Shown: positions 3,048 to 18,668 of the stretch, piece by piece
How the letters are laid out: every line of letters begins with the position of its first letter
Numbering within the stretch: the stretch's first letter is position 1
Virus genome (UHGV): UHGV-0139471
Strand: one strand, 5' to 3'
DNA from: a virus
DNA length: 21,066 nucleotides
Made by a program: the position numbers and the translations under genes
The notes under the pieces: generated by a model
Told to the model about the DNA's origin: nothing
What the model saw: the letters and a program-made list of their open reading frames with translations, nothing else
Databases searched by the model: none

Positions 3048-3599
3048 TTATTTCTCCATACACAAAGATTTATTCGCCACGACGCCCGGAGCTGCACACT
3101 CGCGGGCGTCACTATTTTCTGGCAGGCAATAAACACGAGAAATCAGGTTGAGAAACGTCATCAGCGTGACCCTGAACTGGTAGGCGATATCATTCAGACT
3201 TTGCCACTCCCCGTGTGTAACCACCCCATCATCGATATATTCCCGATAGGCGCTGACCAGCTCGCCGAGTTGTCCCACCAGCTCCGCCAGCTTCAAACCA
3301 ATCTCTTCGTTCTCGTCTTCATGAGCTGCGCCAGATACATGGATCCCGTTGTCGGTTTCACGTGAAAAAACATCGGCGATGTAGCTAACACCTGCTGCCT
3401 TCTGCAGGACCATTGCCCAGCCCATAGGGAATATCTGATCTCCACCAGCACGCAGCCGGTTAAAGATCGCGTCCTGGGTGGTATCCAGAATCTCAGCTGC
3501 TTCGATATAGCCACCAGGTAACGCGGCTATTGTTTTACGGATTGCTGCCACCAGCCACGCGGGCTGTTTTTCTACTTTCCAGGTTGGTTCATTACCCAC
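3048..3599 (-). CDS. CII-like lysogeny regulatory protein (phage 186 CII / CP76-type)
   Basis: Track ORF 3048..3686 overlaps cro; a GTG at 3599 preceded by AAGGGG Shine-Dalgarno lies just downstream of the cro stop and gives 183 aa. Segment AAEILDTTQDAIFNRLRAGGDQIFPMGWAMVL resembles the HTH region of 186-type CII as I recall it. Confidence 0.5.
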   Translation of the reverse strand: MGNEPTWKVEKQPAWLVAAIRKTIAALPGGYIEAAEILDTTQDAIFNRLRAGGDQIFPMGWAMVLQKAAGVSYIADVFSRETDNGIHVSGAAHEDENEEIGLKLAELVGQLGELVSAYREYIDDGVVTHGEWQSLNDIAYQFRVTLMTFLNLISRVYCLPENSDARECAAPGVVANKSLCMEK

Positions 3600-3627
3600 G
3601 GTGTACCCCTTATCTCTGTGGTTCCTA

Positions 3628-3837
3628 TCAAACTTTTTGTTCTTTAAGCTTGCTATACAGCTCCGGTTGGAAAACAAGTTTCCCATCGGTGCGGTACGCG
3701 GCTTCAGCAGCCCTCCCTTTTGGGATCAAGCGACCGGGTCTGTTCCGCCACTGATAAACAGCTTCGCTGGATATGCCAAAGAACTCGGCTACCTTCTCAG
3801 CGTTTCCAAAGTACTTTTCAACATCATCGGTGGTCAT
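3628..3837 (-). CDS. Cro-like HTH repressor
   Basis: 69 aa; HTH-like segment VAEFFGISSEAVYQWRN; GGAG Shine-Dalgarno 6 nt upstream; divergent from the cI-like gene across a 100-bp operator region. Confidence 0.7.
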   Translation of the reverse strand: MTTDDVEKYFGNAEKVAEFFGISSEAVYQWRNRPGRLIPKGRAAEAAYRTDGKLVFQPELYSKLKEQKV

Positions 3838-3851
3838 AATGGCTCCTTTAA

Positions 3852-3865
3852 CTAAGTTTGATTAG
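3852..3865. promoter_or_regulatory. operator-like palindrome CTAAGTTTGATTAG (OR-type site overlapping pR)
   Basis: 14-bp CTAAG-N5-TTAG inverted repeat just downstream of the predicted pR -10 element. Confidence 0.5.
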
Positions 3866-3894
3866 ATAATAATTACCAATCTATCTTTGGTCAA
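3866..3894 (-). promoter_or_regulatory. pR-like promoter for cro and the leftward early operon
   Basis: On the minus strand: -35 TTGACC (3894..3889), 17-bp spacer, -10 TATTAT (3871..3866). Confidence 0.5.
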
Positions 3895-3900
3895 TAAAAA

Positions 3901-3914
3901 CTAAGATTGCTTAG
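3901..3914. promoter_or_regulatory. operator-like palindrome CTAAGATTGCTTAG
   Basis: Near-perfect 14-bp inverted repeat (CTAAG-ATTG-CTTAG) 24 bp upstream of the cI-like start. Confidence 0.5.
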
Positions 3915-3937
3915 CTTGATTGACTACTGGTGTGTAA

Positions 3938-4564
3938 ATGGAAACTGTCGGACAACGAATAAAATCGCTTAGGCGAATCACCAGAACCTCACAAAAAGAG
4001 CTTGGGAAGTTTTGTGGGGTCAGTGATGTCGCAGTTGGGTATTGGGAAAAGGACGTAAACGTCCCAGGAGGGGAATCTCTTTCCAAACTAGCAAAATTCT
4101 TCAATACATCAATTGATTACATACTTTTTGGCACTGAGTTTGAGGGAAACTTAATAACTAAGATGCGAAAAGTTCCCGTGATATCGTGGGTGCAAGCAGG
4201 ATTATTCACTGAATCAAAGCCTGAAGATGTCTTGCATGATGCCGAAAAATGGGTGGAAACGTCTCTCCGCATCAGCGATAACTCGTTTGCCCTTGAAGTA
4301 AAGGGAGACTCAATGACAAATCCTAATGGACTGCCCACGATTCCTGAAGGCGCAACGGTCATCGTTGATCCAGACATTGAGCCAATTCATGGAAAGATTG
4401 TAGTTGCACGAATAGATGGGACCAACGAGGCCACGGTCAAAAAACTGGTTGTAGACGGTCCGCAAAAATTTCTTGTCCCGCTAAATCCCCGTTATCCTAA
4501 CATCGCCATCAATGGTAACTGCGTCATTATTGGTGTGGTTAAAGGCGTTCAATACGAGCTCTGA
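3938..4564 (+). CDS. cI-like prophage repressor (HTH plus S24 LexA-like autopeptidase domain)
   Basis: 208 aa; N-terminal HTH (QKELGKFCGVSDVAVGYWE); C-terminal Ser/Lys dyad context (GDSM ... TVKKL) typical of LexA/cI self-cleaving repressors; divergent from cro. Confidence 0.9.
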   Translation: METVGQRIKSLRRITRTSQKELGKFCGVSDVAVGYWEKDVNVPGGESLSKLAKFFNTSIDYILFGTEFEGNLITKMRKVPVISWVQAGLFTESKPEDVLHDAEKWVETSLRISDNSFALEVKGDSMTNPNGLPTIPEGATVIVDPDIEPIHGKIVVARIDGTNEATVKKLVVDGPQKFLVPLNPRYPNIAINGNCVIIGVVKGVQYEL

Positions 4565-4583: not shown

Positions 4584-4616
4584 GACACCAAGCTAAGAAA
4601 AGTTTGGTGTTTTTTC
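4584..4616 (+). terminator. rho-independent terminator-like hairpin after the cI-like gene
   Basis: Stem acaccaa (4585-4591) / ttggtgt (4604-4610), 12-nt loop, followed by TTTTT. Confidence 0.5.
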
Positions 4617-4645
4617 TTGACGACAAAACTAAGTTAAGTTAGATT
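4617..4645 (+). promoter_or_regulatory. pL-like promoter with overlapping operator (CTAAGTTAAGTTAG at 4629-4642)
   Basis: -35 TTGACG (4617-4622), 17-bp spacer, -10 TAGATT (4640-4645); the third CTAAG-N5-TTAG palindrome overlaps spacer and -10. Confidence 0.5.
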
Positions 4646-4749
4646 TTCATCTATCAACAGCGAAGAGGCAGGACGCCCACGAAGTAGCCGCCCGGGGCAT
4701 ATGAAGTCCGGGATGATTCGCTGACAGATAAACCAAATAGGAACAGATC

Positions 4750-4983
4750 ATGGCAAGCAAAGGCATTGAAAACCTTATCAAGGACGCATTAGCAAACGGC
4801 TGTCATGTAGTCCGTAAAGCGCATCGCTTCGAGGTAAGCAAGAAAGGCCAAAAATCAATCACTCTTATTATTTGTGAAGATGGCACAGCTTACCGGGGAG
4901 ATATTGACCTAACGATCGCCATAGCCATTCGCACTCAAAAAGAAATGCGCAGCATCCTCGGCCTGCCGGCCAAGGCAAGTTAA
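4750..4983 (+). CDS. hypothetical protein (77 aa); weak HicA-toxin-like resemblance
   Basis: AGGAAC Shine-Dalgarno 7 nt upstream; occupies the first position of the pL-side operon. Segment NGCHVVRKAHRFEV and C-terminal RSILGLP loosely resemble HicA (G-W-x-x-R-x-x-GSH ... ILKQAGL), but the GSH motif is not conserved. Confidence 0.5.
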   Translation: MASKGIENLIKDALANGCHVVRKAHRFEVSKKGQKSITLIICEDGTAYRGDIDLTIAIAIRTQKEMRSILGLPAKAS

Positions 4984-6100
4984 TTACCACAGGTATCTTC
5001 GGGAGGGGTTGCGAAGCTGGATTGACCACCAGCAACAGAAACTCACCCGACATACAGCAGCCGTTTAACCCACGGCGTCGGGGGTCCAGTAGACCTGGAT
5101 TAATACTGTAGGGGTTGTGCCGGTTGGTCGCCGGCGCCCCGCCCGAAGATACCTGAACGAACATGGCGAAGCCGACAGCGTTGAAGGCGATTTTCTCGGT
5201 TTGCGCGCTAAACAATAGCGGGGGTGAAATCGGGGCGGAGAAGCAGAATCCGCGATGTCGGGACTTGATACTTCCGGCCATACCAACAAGCCGAATGATC
5301 GCGTAACGATCCTTTGCATCTGCCCCGGCGAGGTGGCGCCGCCGGACCGGGGTAGATGAATCGTACACAACATGAAAGCGCATTCCATCTTCATCCGTCG
5401 TGGGGACTGGTTTGTAACTGAAGGAGTGCGCTTCCAGTTGTGAACGGCAATATTCACGACCGTTGTATGGCACATGCAGCGTTAGCAGCCCGGATGGTTC
5501 CCTTGAAGTTCCATGCGCTATCCGGACAACTGGAATGTGCAAGCTAAGTGTTTCAGGCACGACGTGCGCCCCACCAGCGCGGCGAAAAGGTGTGACGCCC
5601 GGGAAGAGTCCGGGACACAACGATGAGGGCATTGACGAGCAAGGCACAGAGTCTGGTTCGATTCCAGACGCCAGGATAGTTCTATATCTGGTGATGGGCA
5701 GGGAAAAGGTCCGTTCGATTCGGACACCGGCAGTGCTCTCTTCGTTGTGGTAATTGCGGCTATGCGCACGTGACGAGCCAAACCCGTTCAATGAATGCGT
5801 TTCCGGGCAGTGTACGTCGCCGGTTATGGCTTAACCCGGCAGGTGGAGGCACCACCGCCACAACCTAGTTAACTGTGCTGTGTGTAGTCTTGGCGGTTAT
5901 CCAGTTTTCCACTATCCAAAGGAGGAAGAGGATAACGTTCTGATGGATAACCGCCCTTTTTACACAATACACAAGAGCATCACCGGGCGACGGGCTCATA
6001 ACCCAATCCACCCGGGCGGCGTCCTAACCGCAGGTGCTCTTCTGTGTTGTGTACGGAGAAATTCCCGGCGGTGGCAGCCGCCTTTCGAGAGGGTAAAACC

Positions 6101-6472
6101 ATGAGTAATGATCGCATGACAGTCGTGCCCGATTTCCTGGGCGAACTGGACGCCGGCGTATTCATGAACAAGATTGCGGCGGCTCTGAATACCACCGCGC
6201 TCGGCGTTCTGAACAACGGCAACAAAGGCAAAGTAGTCCTGACCTTTGATTTTGAGCGTATGGGCAACTCTGTTGAAGAGAAGCGCGTCAAGATTAAGCA
6301 CAAGCTGAACTACAGCACCCCAACTCCCCGCGGCAAAGCGTCGGAAGAGGACACCACCGAAACACCAATGTGGGTCAATAAAGGCGGCAAGCTCACCATC
6401 CTGCAGGAGGATCAAGGGCAACTCTTCGGTATCACCGGCACGGTGGACGGAAAGCTTAAAGCGGCTCAGTGA
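6101..6472 (+). CDS. hypothetical prophage protein (YfdP-like by size and position)
   Basis: ATG at 6101 with GAGAGGG Shine-Dalgarno; 123 aa; first gene of a rightward operon whose next two genes match the YfdQ/YfdR pattern of E. coli CPS-53. Confidence 0.65.
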   Translation: MSNDRMTVVPDFLGELDAGVFMNKIAAALNTTALGVLNNGNKGKVVLTFDFERMGNSVEEKRVKIKHKLNYSTPTPRGKASEEDTTETPMWVNKGGKLTILQEDQGQLFGITGTVDGKLKAAQ

Positions 6473-9560: not shown

Positions 9561-10048
9561 GCAGCGGAATCGAACTTATGCAGCATGCTCTGGGTGTCAA
9601 TGAGCGCAATAGAACGCCGTACCGAAATTATTTCCTCGCCGGAGATGGTCATACGGACAACGAGGAGTGGGAAAAACTGGTTTCTGATGGTTTCGCTACC
9701 TCCCGGCCAGCGCCTGACTTTGCGGTTAGCGGAACGCTCTATCACGTCACAAATAAAGGCGAAGAATTAGCTATTGCTGCGCTACCTGAACCGAAGAAAA
9801 AGACGCGATACGAAGAATACCTCGACGCTGATAGTTGCCTGTCATTCGGTGAATGGCTGTTGGGTTACCAGCTTCCTGAGGTCGAATATGACCGTCATGG
9901 AAAATGCAGAATGTTCCGGTGCCAATACGATGAATCTTATGGCTACCCGCGTCGTGATATTCAGGGCGAGTGGTGCCCGACAAAGAAAGCAGCCAAAGCC
10001 AGCTACAAAGAAGCGCTGCGCAAGTCTAAACAGGAGCGTGCAGCATGA
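9557..10048 (+). CDS. hypothetical protein (163 aa)
   Basis: ATGA overlap with the upstream gene; no family recognised. Confidence 0.6.
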   Translation: MSSGIELMQHALGVNERNRTPYRNYFLAGDGHTDNEEWEKLVSDGFATSRPAPDFAVSGTLYHVTNKGEELAIAALPEPKKKTRYEEYLDADSCLSFGEWLLGYQLPEVEYDRHGKCRMFRCQYDESYGYPRRDIQGEWCPTKKAAKASYKEALRKSKQERAA

Positions 10049-13628: not shown

Positions 13629-14662
13629 TGCCTGAACATTGCATCACAAATAATGTAAGTAAAAAGTTAAATATCGATTAACACAAAAGCAACATAATAC
13701 ACGTTAAATCATGTGACGGGATTGTTAAATGTATGTTGTGTGGATAATTTTATAAGCATCATGAAATGATGGTTAAGTAAATGATTGAAGTCTCGTTTTA
13801 TGCAAAATAACCAAAAATAAATTTAACCTATAAAATTCAGTGAATTATGTAATTTTGATTGTTTTTCATTCAAAAGTGACTCGATTTTTGGCGTCAATAC
13901 CTTGCATTTTTGCGCTGAGGAAAAATAAAAATAATTAAGTGAAATATTCATTAATTTAATCAATAGGTTATAGTTGTGAGGCAAACGGATGTATAAGGTT
14001 TGACATTCAGTGTCAGCACGAGTAAAAGACCAAAAAGAGGGCAATTAAAGCCATTTTATTTAAAAATGTTTCCACTTGAAATAAAGCCGGACATTTACCA
14101 CCTTACCTATAGCTATACGAATCAATAAGCTATGTTATTTTTCGTGGTGTTTACTGTTTTATTCGCCGGAAATGTTTCTGTAATCTCATCTGACCAGTGC
14201 GTTTAGCATCTTGACATGAGTTTGTTATGAGTTAGCAGAAAGGGGGAAAGCATAAGCATGTGGGGTGGCGGAAAAGATAAAATCGCGCTCAGGCTTGTTT
14301 CCACCAGCGATTGCAGGAATCTATCACTTTTCACTGATGTTTGATAACGGTTAAATATTTGACCGTTCAATTATGTTTGCTCTGTTACATATTCATTGCG
14401 TTAAAAATGAGCATAACAAAAGCAACAAATATCAAACATTCATGTTGGCACGTTAAATGTTATCCATATTGAAAGTGAGTAGTGATGCGTGGTTGGGGCG
14501 ATATTGACCACTAACTTAAATCGTGCAGGTGGGTAGTTTCATGCTGCTTATCCACAGATTTAGCCTTGTGCGTAATATTGACACGTATTACCGCTGGAGC
14601 CGTTTCTGTAATTAGTCAGGCCATTGCCTTTAAATCACCTCTATATAAAGGAGGTGAACTTC

Positions 14663-17272: not shown

Positions 17273-18668
17273 TGATGGCGGCTGGCACGGTGCCAGACTG
17301 CCAGAGCTGCGCGGCGACATTTACCAGAAATTGCGCGACCTTCTAGGGAATATAAGCCCGGACGGTGATTCCCTGATTGGTCAGGTTATGGCGGTTGTCG
17401 CTGAAAATGACCTGAATATAGTGGAGGCCATCGGCTGGACGTTTGCTGGTTTCTTCATTTCATCAGGTGAAGGCATCCAGCTTGACGGTATAGGCGAGGG
17501 GTTCACGCTTCCTCGCTATGGCTTAACCCGTTCATCTGCCGATGTGGTTTACCTGCTGGCTTCAGGGCAGGTAATCGCGTCTGGTGAGACTTTCACTATC
17601 TCCGGTATTTCTGGTGACTGGTCGCCGTCAGGCAGTATTCAGGCCAACGGTAAAAGTGCTACCGGGTTTGTGCTGGAGATTAAGTCTGATGCTATCACCA
17701 CGGGAAATACCTTCACCATATCCATCAACGGTAAGCCATATTCAACGCAGTACCAGACAGGCGATACGTCTGATTCGATTTTATCCAGGCTGTATCCCAT
17801 CATTGCCGCCGCTGATACGTCAGTAACCACATACTCAACAGAATACGGGTTATTGCTTTATGCAGCGGATGGTAAATCGCTCATCCAGTTTTCATTTTCT
17901 GATGATGTTTTTTCCATCGTCCGTACTGGAATGCCCGCAACAACATGGTATGACAGCGATACTGAGTTTCCTGATGTTCGATTCGGCTATGTGGCAACAG
18001 ATGACATTCTGATTCTAGCCAACGGTAGTAAAGGCTTTGAAATAGAAGATGACGAGCAATACAGAGAGCGTCTTTTCGAAGCAGCGGAGGCAGGGAGAAA
18101 GAATGTCAGCGCATCAAGACCGGGCATAAAAAACGCCGTTCTAGCTGTTGCTGGCGTGAGTTACGTCACTGTTAACACCAACAGAGGCATTGAGACAGAT
18201 GCTGATGGTCTGCCGGGGAAATCAGTTCAGGTGTTTGTTGCTGGGGGGGATAGCGATGCTATAGCGCAGGCCATATATGACGCGGCAGCGGCTGAGTGCG
18301 GTTTCTACGGCAACACATCGGGTACAGCAACTGACGGTACAACTACCGAAACAGTGTATTTCACTCGCCAGAGCTTCCAGCTTGTCTATGTTTCCGTTTC
18401 CGGTGATACATGGGATGCAGAGACAACAGGCAAGCCAGACGATTACGAGAGCGTAGCTAAAAGCGTTATCACTGGCTATTTCTCACAGCTTGAAATGGGG
18501 CGTGACGTTTTCGCAGGTCAAATATCTGCCCGTTTGGTTACGGCTTTTCCGACGATGACGGATGTAACAGTAACGGTAGGTACTTCTGAATCACCAACCG
18601 GAAAAACCGTTCCCATAAGTAGCGGTGTTGTCGCAGTTACAGATTCTACTTCTGTGGTGGTGTCGTAA
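17259..18668 (+). CDS. large baseplate wedge protein (J-like by position)
   Basis: 469 aa; GTG start with GGAGG at 6 nt spacing; synteny (after the W-like gene, before an I-like-sized gene); no motif confirmed by eye. Confidence 0.5.
   Translation: MELINDGGWHGARLPELRGDIYQKLRDLLGNISPDGDSLIGQVMAVVAENDLNIVEAIGWTFAGFFISSGEGIQLDGIGEGFTLPRYGLTRSSADVVYLLASGQVIASGETFTISGISGDWSPSGSIQANGKSATGFVLEIKSDAITTGNTFTISINGKPYSTQYQTGDTSDSILSRLYPIIAAADTSVTTYSTEYGLLLYAADGKSLIQFSFSDDVFSIVRTGMPATTWYDSDTEFPDVRFGYVATDDILILANGSKGFEIEDDEQYRERLFEAAEAGRKNVSASRPGIKNAVLAVAGVSYVTVNTNRGIETDADGLPGKSVQVFVAGGDSDAIAQAIYDAAAAECGFYGNTSGTATDGTTTETVYFTRQSFQLVYVSVSGDTWDAETTGKPDDYESVAKSVITGYFSQLEMGRDVFAGQISARLVTAFPTMTDVTVTVGTSESPTGKTVPISSGVVAVTDSTSVVVS

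Follow-up and report, generated by a model that had tools for sequence, protein, structure and literature searches.

The window analysed here is a 21,066-nucleotide (nt) stretch of the virus genome UHGV-0139471, and the subject is its segment at positions 4984–5890, which an initial annotation, made from the letters alone, had singled out as poor in open reading frames (ORFs), rich in G+C and marked by two hairpins resembling the T-arm of tRNA. We show that this segment is the centre of an approximately 1.1-kb stretch (4991–6052) of the early-left transcript that is untranslated and densely folded. As judged from alignments of homologs, the stretch is an array of eight predicted RNA modules, which are designated as A, A2, B, B', C, D, T and U, each of them is predicted to fold by itself and is found again in other phages, and six exhibit compensatory changes. 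These comparisons show that the plus strand can give rise to a structured RNA of several modules, which is under purifying selection. The suggestion that the segment encodes a structured, phage-borne noncoding RNA (ncRNA) is therefore supported: the modules recur across phages, and compensatory changes are present in the alignments of A, A2, B', C, T and U.

The locus contains a cI-like repressor gene (3938–4564, plus strand) encoding S24 and HTH domains, followed by the repressor-gene terminator (4584–4611, plus strand) and an operator-bearing, sigma-70-type promoter, TTGACG-17-TAGATT (4617–4645, plus strand), both detected by a promoter and terminator scan. A small ORF of 77 aa (234 nt; 4750–4983, plus strand; phrog_12911) separates the promoter from the array, which is arranged in the order A-A2-B-B'-C-D-T-U and is followed by a yfdP-like gene (6101–6472, plus strand) and then yfdQ/DUF2303 and yfdR-like genes. 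The minus strand carries a DicC-like Cro gene (3628–3837) and a CII/YmfL-like gene (3048–3686), both assigned by a family scan. A repeat search revealed three copies of the operator-like palindrome ACTAAG-n4-CTTAG, two in the gap between cI and cro (3848–3868 and 3897–3917) and one over the −10 element of the promoter (4625–4645); the three palindromes define putative OR-like and OL-like operators of the immunity region. Since the operator repeat is common to the cI/cro gap and the promoter, the promoter at 4617–4645 is the PL equivalent, and this repressor-controlled, PL-type promoter probably drives the array and, we infer, is shut off in the lysogen. The neighboring proteins scanned against Pfam and PHROGs were repressor, CII-like, YfdP/Q/R-like and ParB-like proteins. 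The gene order of cI, a gap of 0.8–1 kb and yfdPQR is common to ST64B, 1720a-02, Stx2a_1447 and E. coli chromosomes, in all of which the gap carries no annotation, and PGAP shows no feature beneath the array matches, among the matches listed.

The 4984–5890 segment contains no credible plus-strand gene, as initially described, with 7–14 stops in each plus frame. The 307-aa minus-strand ORF reported there does exist (4868–5791), and it matches no Pfam or PHROG family. The description of the segment as G+C-rich relative to its flanks holds for the upstream side (0.564 vs 0.447) and only mildly for the downstream side (0.512); the G+C content of the whole window is 0.493. The structured nature of the segment was recognized, but its end was placed too early at 5890, and the structured stretch extends to approximately 6052.

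Module C (5616–5749, plus strand) is a predicted four-way junction, for which 36 distinct variants were aligned. Its 19-bp closing helix, P1, pairs 5616–5634 with 5731–5749 and encloses the hairpins hp1 (5651–5669), hp2 (5671–5691) and hp3 (5709–5725), all on the plus strand. The T-loop hairpins hp1 (gtctgg-TTCGATT-ccagac) and hp3 (gtccg-TTCGATT-cggac) lie exactly where the initial annotation had placed them, and each has the loop UUCRAUU across the variants; hp2 is nearly free in sequence and always paired. The joining strands UGACGAGCAAGGCAUA and GGGCAgGGAAAAG (the second also given as GGGCAnnGAAAnG) are invariant. In the 36 variants, 92.9% of the cells are paired, as against 36–56% when the partners are slid, and changes on both sides of a pair were found at 16 pairs and in 120 cells, values that none of 500 shuffles reached. 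RNAalifold independently recovered the same fold. With a covariance model of C, the plus strand of the window copy scored 151.8 bits (E ~1e-41), as against 18.8 bits for the minus strand.

The collection of homologs and the RNAalifold analysis proposed in the initial annotation thus yielded covarying pairs between phages. The real covariation is that between phages; the two T-loop hairpins, whose stem differences had been presented as compensatory, lie within a single RNA, and their comparison is no evidence of covariation. The similar tails said to follow both hairpins are not homologous either: GCCAGG forms the 5' strand of the following hairpin, and ACCGG, which is not its counterpart, leads back to the closing helix as a joining segment.

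Both T-loop hairpins carry G-UUCGAUU-C and fit the T-arm pattern G53-UUCRANN-C61, in which the G, the UUC, A58 and the closing C never vary across the 36 variants. As sequences, they satisfy the full tRNA T-arm consensus, G53-U54-U55-C56-R57-A58-N-N-C61. For the motif GTTCRATTC, four copies are present in the window where 0.62 would be expected, a number not attained in any of 100 shuffles; two of the copies are located 57 nt apart within the segment. Elsewhere in the window, two further exact GTTCGATTC matches are present at 9567–9575 (minus strand) and 17976–17984 (plus strand). In module C, hp1 is directly followed by hp2, the same succession as that of T-stem and acceptor stem in tRNA, and the module has a 19-bp closing helix and no anticodon-type loop, an organization that differs from the 7-bp acceptor stem and the 5-bp anticodon stem with its 7-nt loop in tRNA. 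The earlier statement that the hairpins cannot be completed into a cloverleaf agrees with ARAGORN, which called no tRNA or transfer-messenger RNA (tmRNA) in the window, and Rfam detected no tmRNA there. A D-arm-like pairing of GGGC with GUCC inside C was considered and dropped, as compensatory changes support hp3.

The first set of C homologs was gathered with an exact 18-mer of one joining strand. A second set, for which the search pattern was drawn from the opposite half of C as a partial control for the bias of the 18-mer, comprised eight Enterobacterales species, and the joining strand was invariant there too. P1 is rewritten in Rouxiella and Serratia and still pairs in Rouxiella, where the sequence covers both strands. 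The length between the invariant anchors of C is 86, 88, 89, 92, 93, 94 or 95 nt among phages, a variation that breaks any reading frame, and no reading frame is open in all C variants.

The modules upstream of C, all on the plus strand, differ in construction. Module A (4991–5154; 20-sequence alignment) is an 18-bp closing helix around a replaceable interior: the helix, in which AGGUAUCUUCGGG-a-GGGGU pairs with ACCCC-GCCCGAAGAUACCU, is nearly invariant around three unrelated interiors, 9 of the 27 pairs of the module exhibit compensatory changes, and a homolog is present in Salmonella phage ST64B. Module A2 (5160–5354; seven distinct homologs) is a multi-hairpin element for which RNAalifold predicted 43 pairs, 14 with compensatory changes. 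Module B (5366–5442; ten distinct homologs) is a long hairpin framed by a 5' CACAAC and a 3' GUUGUG; none of its 29 pairs is compensatory, and this predicted fold rests mainly on conservation. Module B' (5461–5619) was aligned for 13 sequences from lambdoid, P1-like D6, Lastavirus and epsilon15-like phages, and 9 of its 30 pairs exhibit compensatory changes. It comprises a 9-bp 5' hairpin (5461–5481), the invariant strands AUGGCACAUG and GGAAUGUGCAAG, and a CCCGG-GAAGAGU-CCGGG hairpin, which had been pointed out in the initial annotation and is confirmed at 5598–5614. Closure of B' by GUUGU/ACAAC was dropped, as covariation favors the local 5' hairpin.

Downstream of C, also on the plus strand, module D (5744–5864; 12 sequences from lambdoid, Lastavirus and P1-like phages) is tRNA-shaped and cloverleaf-like in its predicted fold, with an 8-bp closing stem formed by GUUGUGGU and GCCACAAC and a predicted interior consisting of a small hairpin, a long arm, an extra hairpin and the 5-bp hairpin GGUGG-AGGCA-CCACC beside the 3' stem strand. 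It is nearly invariant in sequence outside a variable center and has no anticodon loop or T-loop, and it thus departs from the acceptor and anticodon organization of tRNA. Module T (5872–5961) is DicF-like and consists of a conserved 5' single strand, GCUGUGUGUAGUCUU, followed, just outside the 4984–5890 segment, by a long hairpin (5892–5955), the loop of which contains AAGGAGGAAGAGGAUAA, and a U-tract; five compensatory pairs were found among 11 variants. Module U (5962–6052) is a long framed hairpin in the 5' untranslated region (UTR) of the yfdP-like gene (start codon at 6101). Among 18 variants of U, 9 of 36 pairs exhibit compensatory changes; this module may serve as a cis-regulatory element of the 5' UTR or as a site for RNase III, and it anchors a gene order common with E. 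coli, Salmonella and Shiga toxin 2 (Stx2) prophages.

At paired columns, G.U exceeds A.C in all eight modules (C 55:6, U 62:5, B' 49:5, B 42:2 and A2 22:2, with 20:6, 24:4 and 11:1 in the others), and this excess indicates that the plus strand folds, as RNA rather than DNA. The word GAAGAG recurs in hairpin loops, namely those of B' (5603–5609) and T (approximately 5926–5931), and its complement CUCUUC in closing-helix strands, namely the 3' strands of C (5737–5742) and U (approximately 6038–6043); loop-helix competition or kissing contacts between modules are a possibility.

To follow the modules across phages, we gathered approximately 240 related loci from viral contigs, species-representative genomes and annotated records. 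BLAST against phage genomes gave no full-length match to the array, and sub-segments matched different, unrelated phages: 4989–5155 matched ST64B, 5355–5637 Klebsiella phage 1 LV-2017, 5466–5750 SPN1S/SPN9TCW, 5567–5758 Stx2 phages, and 5742–5864 SJM3/LASTA, SopranoGao and P1-like D6. The homology breakpoints examined are located at CACAAC/GTTGTG junction words or module edges. For example, a 98% match to Klebsiella phage Kp4866-6 has its start at 5365, immediately preceding the first base of module B, and the SJM3 match covers module D to within two bases. The host range spans Enterobacterales: the genome scan detected hosts in Citrobacter, Yersinia, Rouxiella, Serratia, Izhakiella, Edwardsiella and Buttiauxella, to which phage records add Klebsiella, Escherichia, Salmonella and Enterobacter; two Stenotrophomonas phage records are carriers outside Enterobacterales.

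Sampling anchored on U is less biased than sampling anchored on C. In a hidden Markov model (HMM) search of 100 U-anchored loci, B' with U was found in 35, D with U in 22 and C in one. The candidate role of C as a constant core of the array was dropped, as only 1/100 (HMM) and 1/54 (covariance model) of such loci carry it, and 21 of the 54 have the same P1 closing frame around a short head without T-loops. A recurrent core order is B', a framed hairpin (of which C is an elaborate form with two T-loops), a tRNA-shaped module or tRNA-Arg(tct), and a DicF-like terminator. The tRNA-shaped slot is occupied by D in the window, by a tRNA-like unit elsewhere and by a genuine tRNA-Arg(tct) in SPN1S-type phages.

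Individual loci illustrate this order. A typical E. coli-type locus (L141) consists of the cI stop, a terminator, an AT-rich promoter region, B', a reduced framed hairpin, a D-like module, T, U and yfdP; B' starts directly after the promoter, and no ORF is present between the promoter and yfdP. In SPN9TCW, B', C and tRNA-Arg(tct) are followed by a putative T-like sequence. The Klebsiella Lastavirus SJM3 carries nearly the same set as a self-contained unit that runs from promoter to terminator: a terminator, the promoter TTGCAA-18-TATATT, B'-like, C-like and tRNA-like modules, a framed hairpin, D directly upstream of tRNA-Arg(tct), and a terminator. In P1-like D6, a tRNA(CAU) is followed by B', a plain framed hairpin and D. 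Upstream of C at another locus (L038, 1116–1241) is a tRNA-like unit that scores 39.9 bits with the Rfam tRNA model (gathering score 29) and has a normal acceptor stem, D-arm and T-arm; approximately 68 nt replaces its anticodon arm, and ARAGORN does not call it. Having no anticodon loop, a unit of this type probably does not decode, and similar units are present at five further loci (L053, L074, L085, L087 and L137). ARAGORN, applied to 66 loci, detected real tRNAs in only a minority of the relatives. Collectively, the comparisons of sequence show that the modules are exchanged between phages and are evolutionarily linked to phage tRNA transcription units.

Two deposited records deserve comment with respect to their tRNA annotation. 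The tRNA of Escherichia phage D6 (L248, MF356679.1; 1700–1772; anticodon CAU; 58.5 bits with the Rfam tRNA model) is missing from the deposited annotation. In Salmonella phage SPN9TCW (L001, JQ691610.1), the deposited tRNA-Arg (3276–3349) is offset from the ARAGORN call (3281–3357, tct), and the matching stretch carries no annotated feature in the related SPN1S records.

The array was compared with known RNA families by the Rfam scan that the initial annotation had recommended. Rfam 15 gave no match in the whole window at the gathering score, and at E ≤ 10 the 4600–6300 region gave only a weak DicF-like match at 5879–5956. The tRNA model RF00005 had no match in 4600–6300 even at E ≤ 10; as positive controls, neighboring units in other phages scored 73.6, 58.5 and 39.9 bits with this model. 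The YrlA model had no match in 4600–6300 at E ≤ 10, no match was obtained with the GOLLD and ROOL models, and no TROVE domain indicative of a Ro60 gene was found among the scanned neighbors, a scan that covered part of the window ORFs. Adjacency to tRNA genes of the GOLLD/ROOL type is seen in SPN9TCW, SJM3 and D6, with no tRNA adjacent in the window itself. The DicF model RF00039 scored T at 16.5 bits (E = 2) in the window and 33 bits (E 4.5e-5) in the relative L038, both short of the gathering score of 48. T is located in a DicF-type context, with a DicC-like Cro, common operators, and the hairpin at 5892–5955 with its U-tract. T is thus DicF-like in form and position and is below the curated membership threshold.

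Protein families (Pfam, PHROGs and NCBIfam) gave no match to the ORFs of the region except phrog_36251, which matches residues 15–60 of an antisense 87-aa ORF. The matched residues correspond to nt 5602–5739 on the minus strand, within 15 nt of the limits of C, and since the length of C varies by non-multiples of three, phrog_36251 was probably built on mis-called ORFs. A protein gene or pseudogene was rejected in view of the absence of a Pfam match and of indels between phages whose lengths are not divisible by three. No account of these modules emerged from a literature search, and the 2023 catalogue of 8,495 anonymous IMG/VR candidates (Fremin) may include some of them.

A mechanism can be proposed from these features. 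The array would be transcribed as soon as the repressor is inactivated, and host nucleases that process tRNA and rRNA would cut it at the helix-framed junctions to release stable small RNAs, with the acceptor-like stems as sites for RNase P, and the long stems and A/U-rich linkers as sites for RNase III or RNase E. Module C would present mimics of the tRNA T-arm or elbow, for which the invariant GG-containing single strands beside its T-loops could act as a D-loop. Together with the tRNA-shaped modules, C may engage host tRNA-recognizing factors, either as decoys or sponges or as processing handles, and T may act as a DicF-type trans-acting small RNA (sRNA) with its 5' end set by the upstream tRNA-shaped module. 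We consider it close to an even chance, and slightly short of it, that the array is processed in this way to stable tRNA-mimicking RNAs with T as a DicF-type sRNA. A broader proposal is correspondingly more tentative, and we would put it forward as a possibility with the odds against it: an undescribed, shuffling cassette system of tRNA-mimicking RNAs in enterobacterial phages (Stx2-converting, P1-like, epsilon15-like and Klebsiella phages), the framed modules of which are swapped at junction words, expressed at the start of infection or induction, and manipulate the host tRNA-recognizing machinery, for example by acting as decoys that draw off immune nucleases or toxins directed at tRNA, or in the form of an ornate particle, made of RNA only, that handles tRNAs.

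Several observations weigh against the processing of the array to tRNA mimics. Every mechanistic step is inferred. Neither C nor D is recognized by the Rfam tRNA or YrlA models, and only 2 of 27 pairs covary in D and none in B, so that the cloverleaf of D rests mainly on conservation and thermodynamics. The exact 18-mer used for the first collection inflates the apparent conservation of that strand of C. Module C is moreover optional, being complete in one of the 54 U-anchored loci searched with the covariance model, and whatever it adds is therefore accessory. Its T-loops may be purely architectural motifs, as they are in RNase P, T-box leaders and raiA. Finally, the position of the array, between PL and a terminator in lambdoid phages with no N-like ORF, would fit a cis-acting role equally well.

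Such a role would be that of a leader in which put-like processive antitermination, or shielding from Rho, lets transcription from PL pass T and reach yfdPQR. Relatives such as L141 have no ORF between PL and the T terminator and hence no N-type antiterminator there, B' starts directly after the promoter at that locus, and T, with its stem and U-tract, lies upstream of early genes. The excess of G over C in the region (skew +0.08) is unfavorable to Rho loading, and RNA-only antitermination is known in the lambdoid phage HK022 (PMC9378689). The same modules, however, are also found outside the PL context, in stand-alone tRNA-bearing units (SJM3) and downstream of a tRNA in D6, their composition is highly variable between phages, and Rho shielding needs neither invariant T-loops nor invariant joining strands. 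A put RNA itself was rejected as a candidate: put, at approximately 70 nt with two stem-loops and a triplex, differs in architecture from every module, and the 234-nt ORF separates PL from the array. We regard a cis-acting leader as the main alternative, albeit an unlikely one. It is improbable to a greater degree that B'-C-D, perhaps with A, A2 and B, form a single ornate RNA particle of 400–1000 nt, possibly multimeric and tRNA-associated, as a counterpart of GOLLD and ROOL. The order B'-hairpin-D recurs in four unrelated phage groups, the plus-strand fold of 5340–5770 is more stable than that of shuffles (z = −3.1), and GOLLD and ROOL are phage or prophage RNAs near tRNA islands, with tRNAs that can be carried in the GOLLD linker (10.1101/2024.12.08.627333). 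Nevertheless, the modules are also found separately, B' or D accompanying U in the 35 and 22 loci mentioned above without the partner module, no covarying pair between modules was found, and the Rfam models for GOLLD and ROOL gave no match.

The breakpoints at junction words or module edges, and the inverted repeats that bracket every module, could instead indicate an element that matters as DNA, with the inverted CACAAC/GTTGTG frames serving as recombination or transposition sites of cassettes or miniature inverted-repeat transposable elements (MITEs). We think this very improbable: the large excess of G.U over A.C and the approximately 8-fold higher model score on one strand are unexpected for DNA cruciforms, the sequences of the T-loops and single-stranded joints do not vary, the scanned neighbors include no transposase or dedicated recombinase, and short conserved words would serve ordinary homologous recombination as breakpoints anyway. 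A DNA repeat of the MITE or repetitive extragenic palindrome (REP) type, expected to be strand-symmetric, was rejected on the same asymmetry in C (G.U 55 vs A.C 6; 151.8 vs 18.8 bits). Least credible of all is a decaying locus, that is, a remnant of a tRNA cluster or attP core or of a frameshifted protein gene, an idea raised in part by the initial annotation. Two T-arm-like hairpins without a complete cloverleaf, real tRNA-Arg genes in the neighboring position in other phages, and the match of phrog_36251 to the antisense 87-aa ORF are what such decay might leave. Conservation and compensatory changes across Enterobacterales contradict it, and the phrog_36251 match falls on C, whose length varies out of frame, with no Pfam match. 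Of the notion of a tRNA-derived remnant, the link to tRNA is real, as the modules abut tRNA-Arg(tct), tRNA(CAU) or a tRNA-like unit elsewhere, and the decay is not. An attachment-site remnant is at odds with a structure that is under selection and with strand-specific G.U pairs, and a decayed gene with the lack of protein-family support and the out-of-frame anchor spacing of C. The suggestion of an RNA partner for the adjacent small ORF also fails: this ORF is missing from most phages that carry the modules, and its HicA-like label was not upheld, as it matches no HicA family and only the unannotated phrog_12911.

If processing of the array to tRNA-mimicking RNAs holds, the kilobase of apparently empty DNA that heads the early operon in many E. 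coli, Salmonella and Klebsiella prophages, with Shiga-toxin phages among the carriers, would consist of conserved RNA devices. It would bear on the question, raised by GOLLD and ROOL, of why phages keep large structured RNAs beside tRNA genes, on tRNA mimics as an RNA-level counter-defence, and on read-through of early terminators in lambdoid phages without an N protein. The modules occur in tractable phages and hosts, including P1-like D6, ST64B, SPN1S and E. coli lysogens. As by-products, the analysis points to phrog_36251 as a probably spurious protein family and to a tRNA that a reference phage record fails to annotate. Unrelated to the array, a sharply AT-rich island (G+C 0.26–0.29, the rest being approximately 50%) is present at 13650–14100 of the window.

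Among known systems, module C is comparable with YrlA, a tRNA-mimicking bacterial Y RNA that is a partner of Ro60/Rsr and is also present in some phages (Chen et al. 2014, PMC4201824). Both have a long closing stem with a multi-branched head, a T-arm hairpin directly followed by a second hairpin (the acceptor-like arm in YrlA and hp2 in C), GG-containing strands available for T-loop docking, and a length of approximately 100–135 nt; the hp1-hp2 order of C resembles the permuted tRNA-like domain of YrlA. In contrast, the place of the D-arm of YrlA is taken in C by a second T-loop hairpin, and C is located in a polycistronic array.

The layout of the locus mirrors dicA/dicC and dicBp-ydfABC-dicF-dicB of the E. 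coli prophage Qin: a cI/DicA-type repressor and a DicC-type Cro control the promoter, small ORFs or ncRNA come first, and a DicF-like hairpin-terminator precedes the downstream genes. DicF is cut from its operon transcript by RNase III and RNase E. Only T resembles DicF, however, and its 5' seed is not the one with which E. coli DicF binds ftsZ. In a near-identity search, no E. coli genome matched modules A–D over most of their length.

The array is also similar in position to the put RNA of HK022, an RNA-only processive antiterminator of approximately 70 nt with two stem-loops and a triplex (PMC9378689), in that it is an ncRNA downstream of PL and upstream of terminators in a lambdoid phage without an N protein; its modules, however, are of another form and are not confined to early operons. 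The large RNAs GOLLD and ROOL come from phages or prophages, where they are located close to tRNA islands, and the linker of GOLLD may contain tRNAs (10.1101/2024.12.08.627333). Like them, the array is phage- or prophage-borne, long, highly structured and recurrently located beside tRNA genes or with embedded tRNAs, but it is modular and shuffled, whereas GOLLD and ROOL each have a single conserved architecture. We know of no report of GOLLD or ROOL in Enterobacterales.

tRNA-like handles and stable phage RNAs include the T4 species 1 and 2 RNAs, the P1 c4 RNA matured by RNase P, the MALAT1 mascRNA and the TMERs of MHV68. In each, a tRNA-shaped element in a longer transcript is cut by tRNA-processing enzymes and sets the ends of a neighboring RNA. 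The processing of the array is hypothetical, and it differs from these RNAs in having no sequence relationship to them, the Rfam scan, which is believed to include the C4 model, having returned no match. The likeness lies in arrangement, as D or a real tRNA is located immediately upstream of the DicF-like T. We classify the modules with the phage-encoded, tRNA-mimicking and tRNA-linked structured RNAs.

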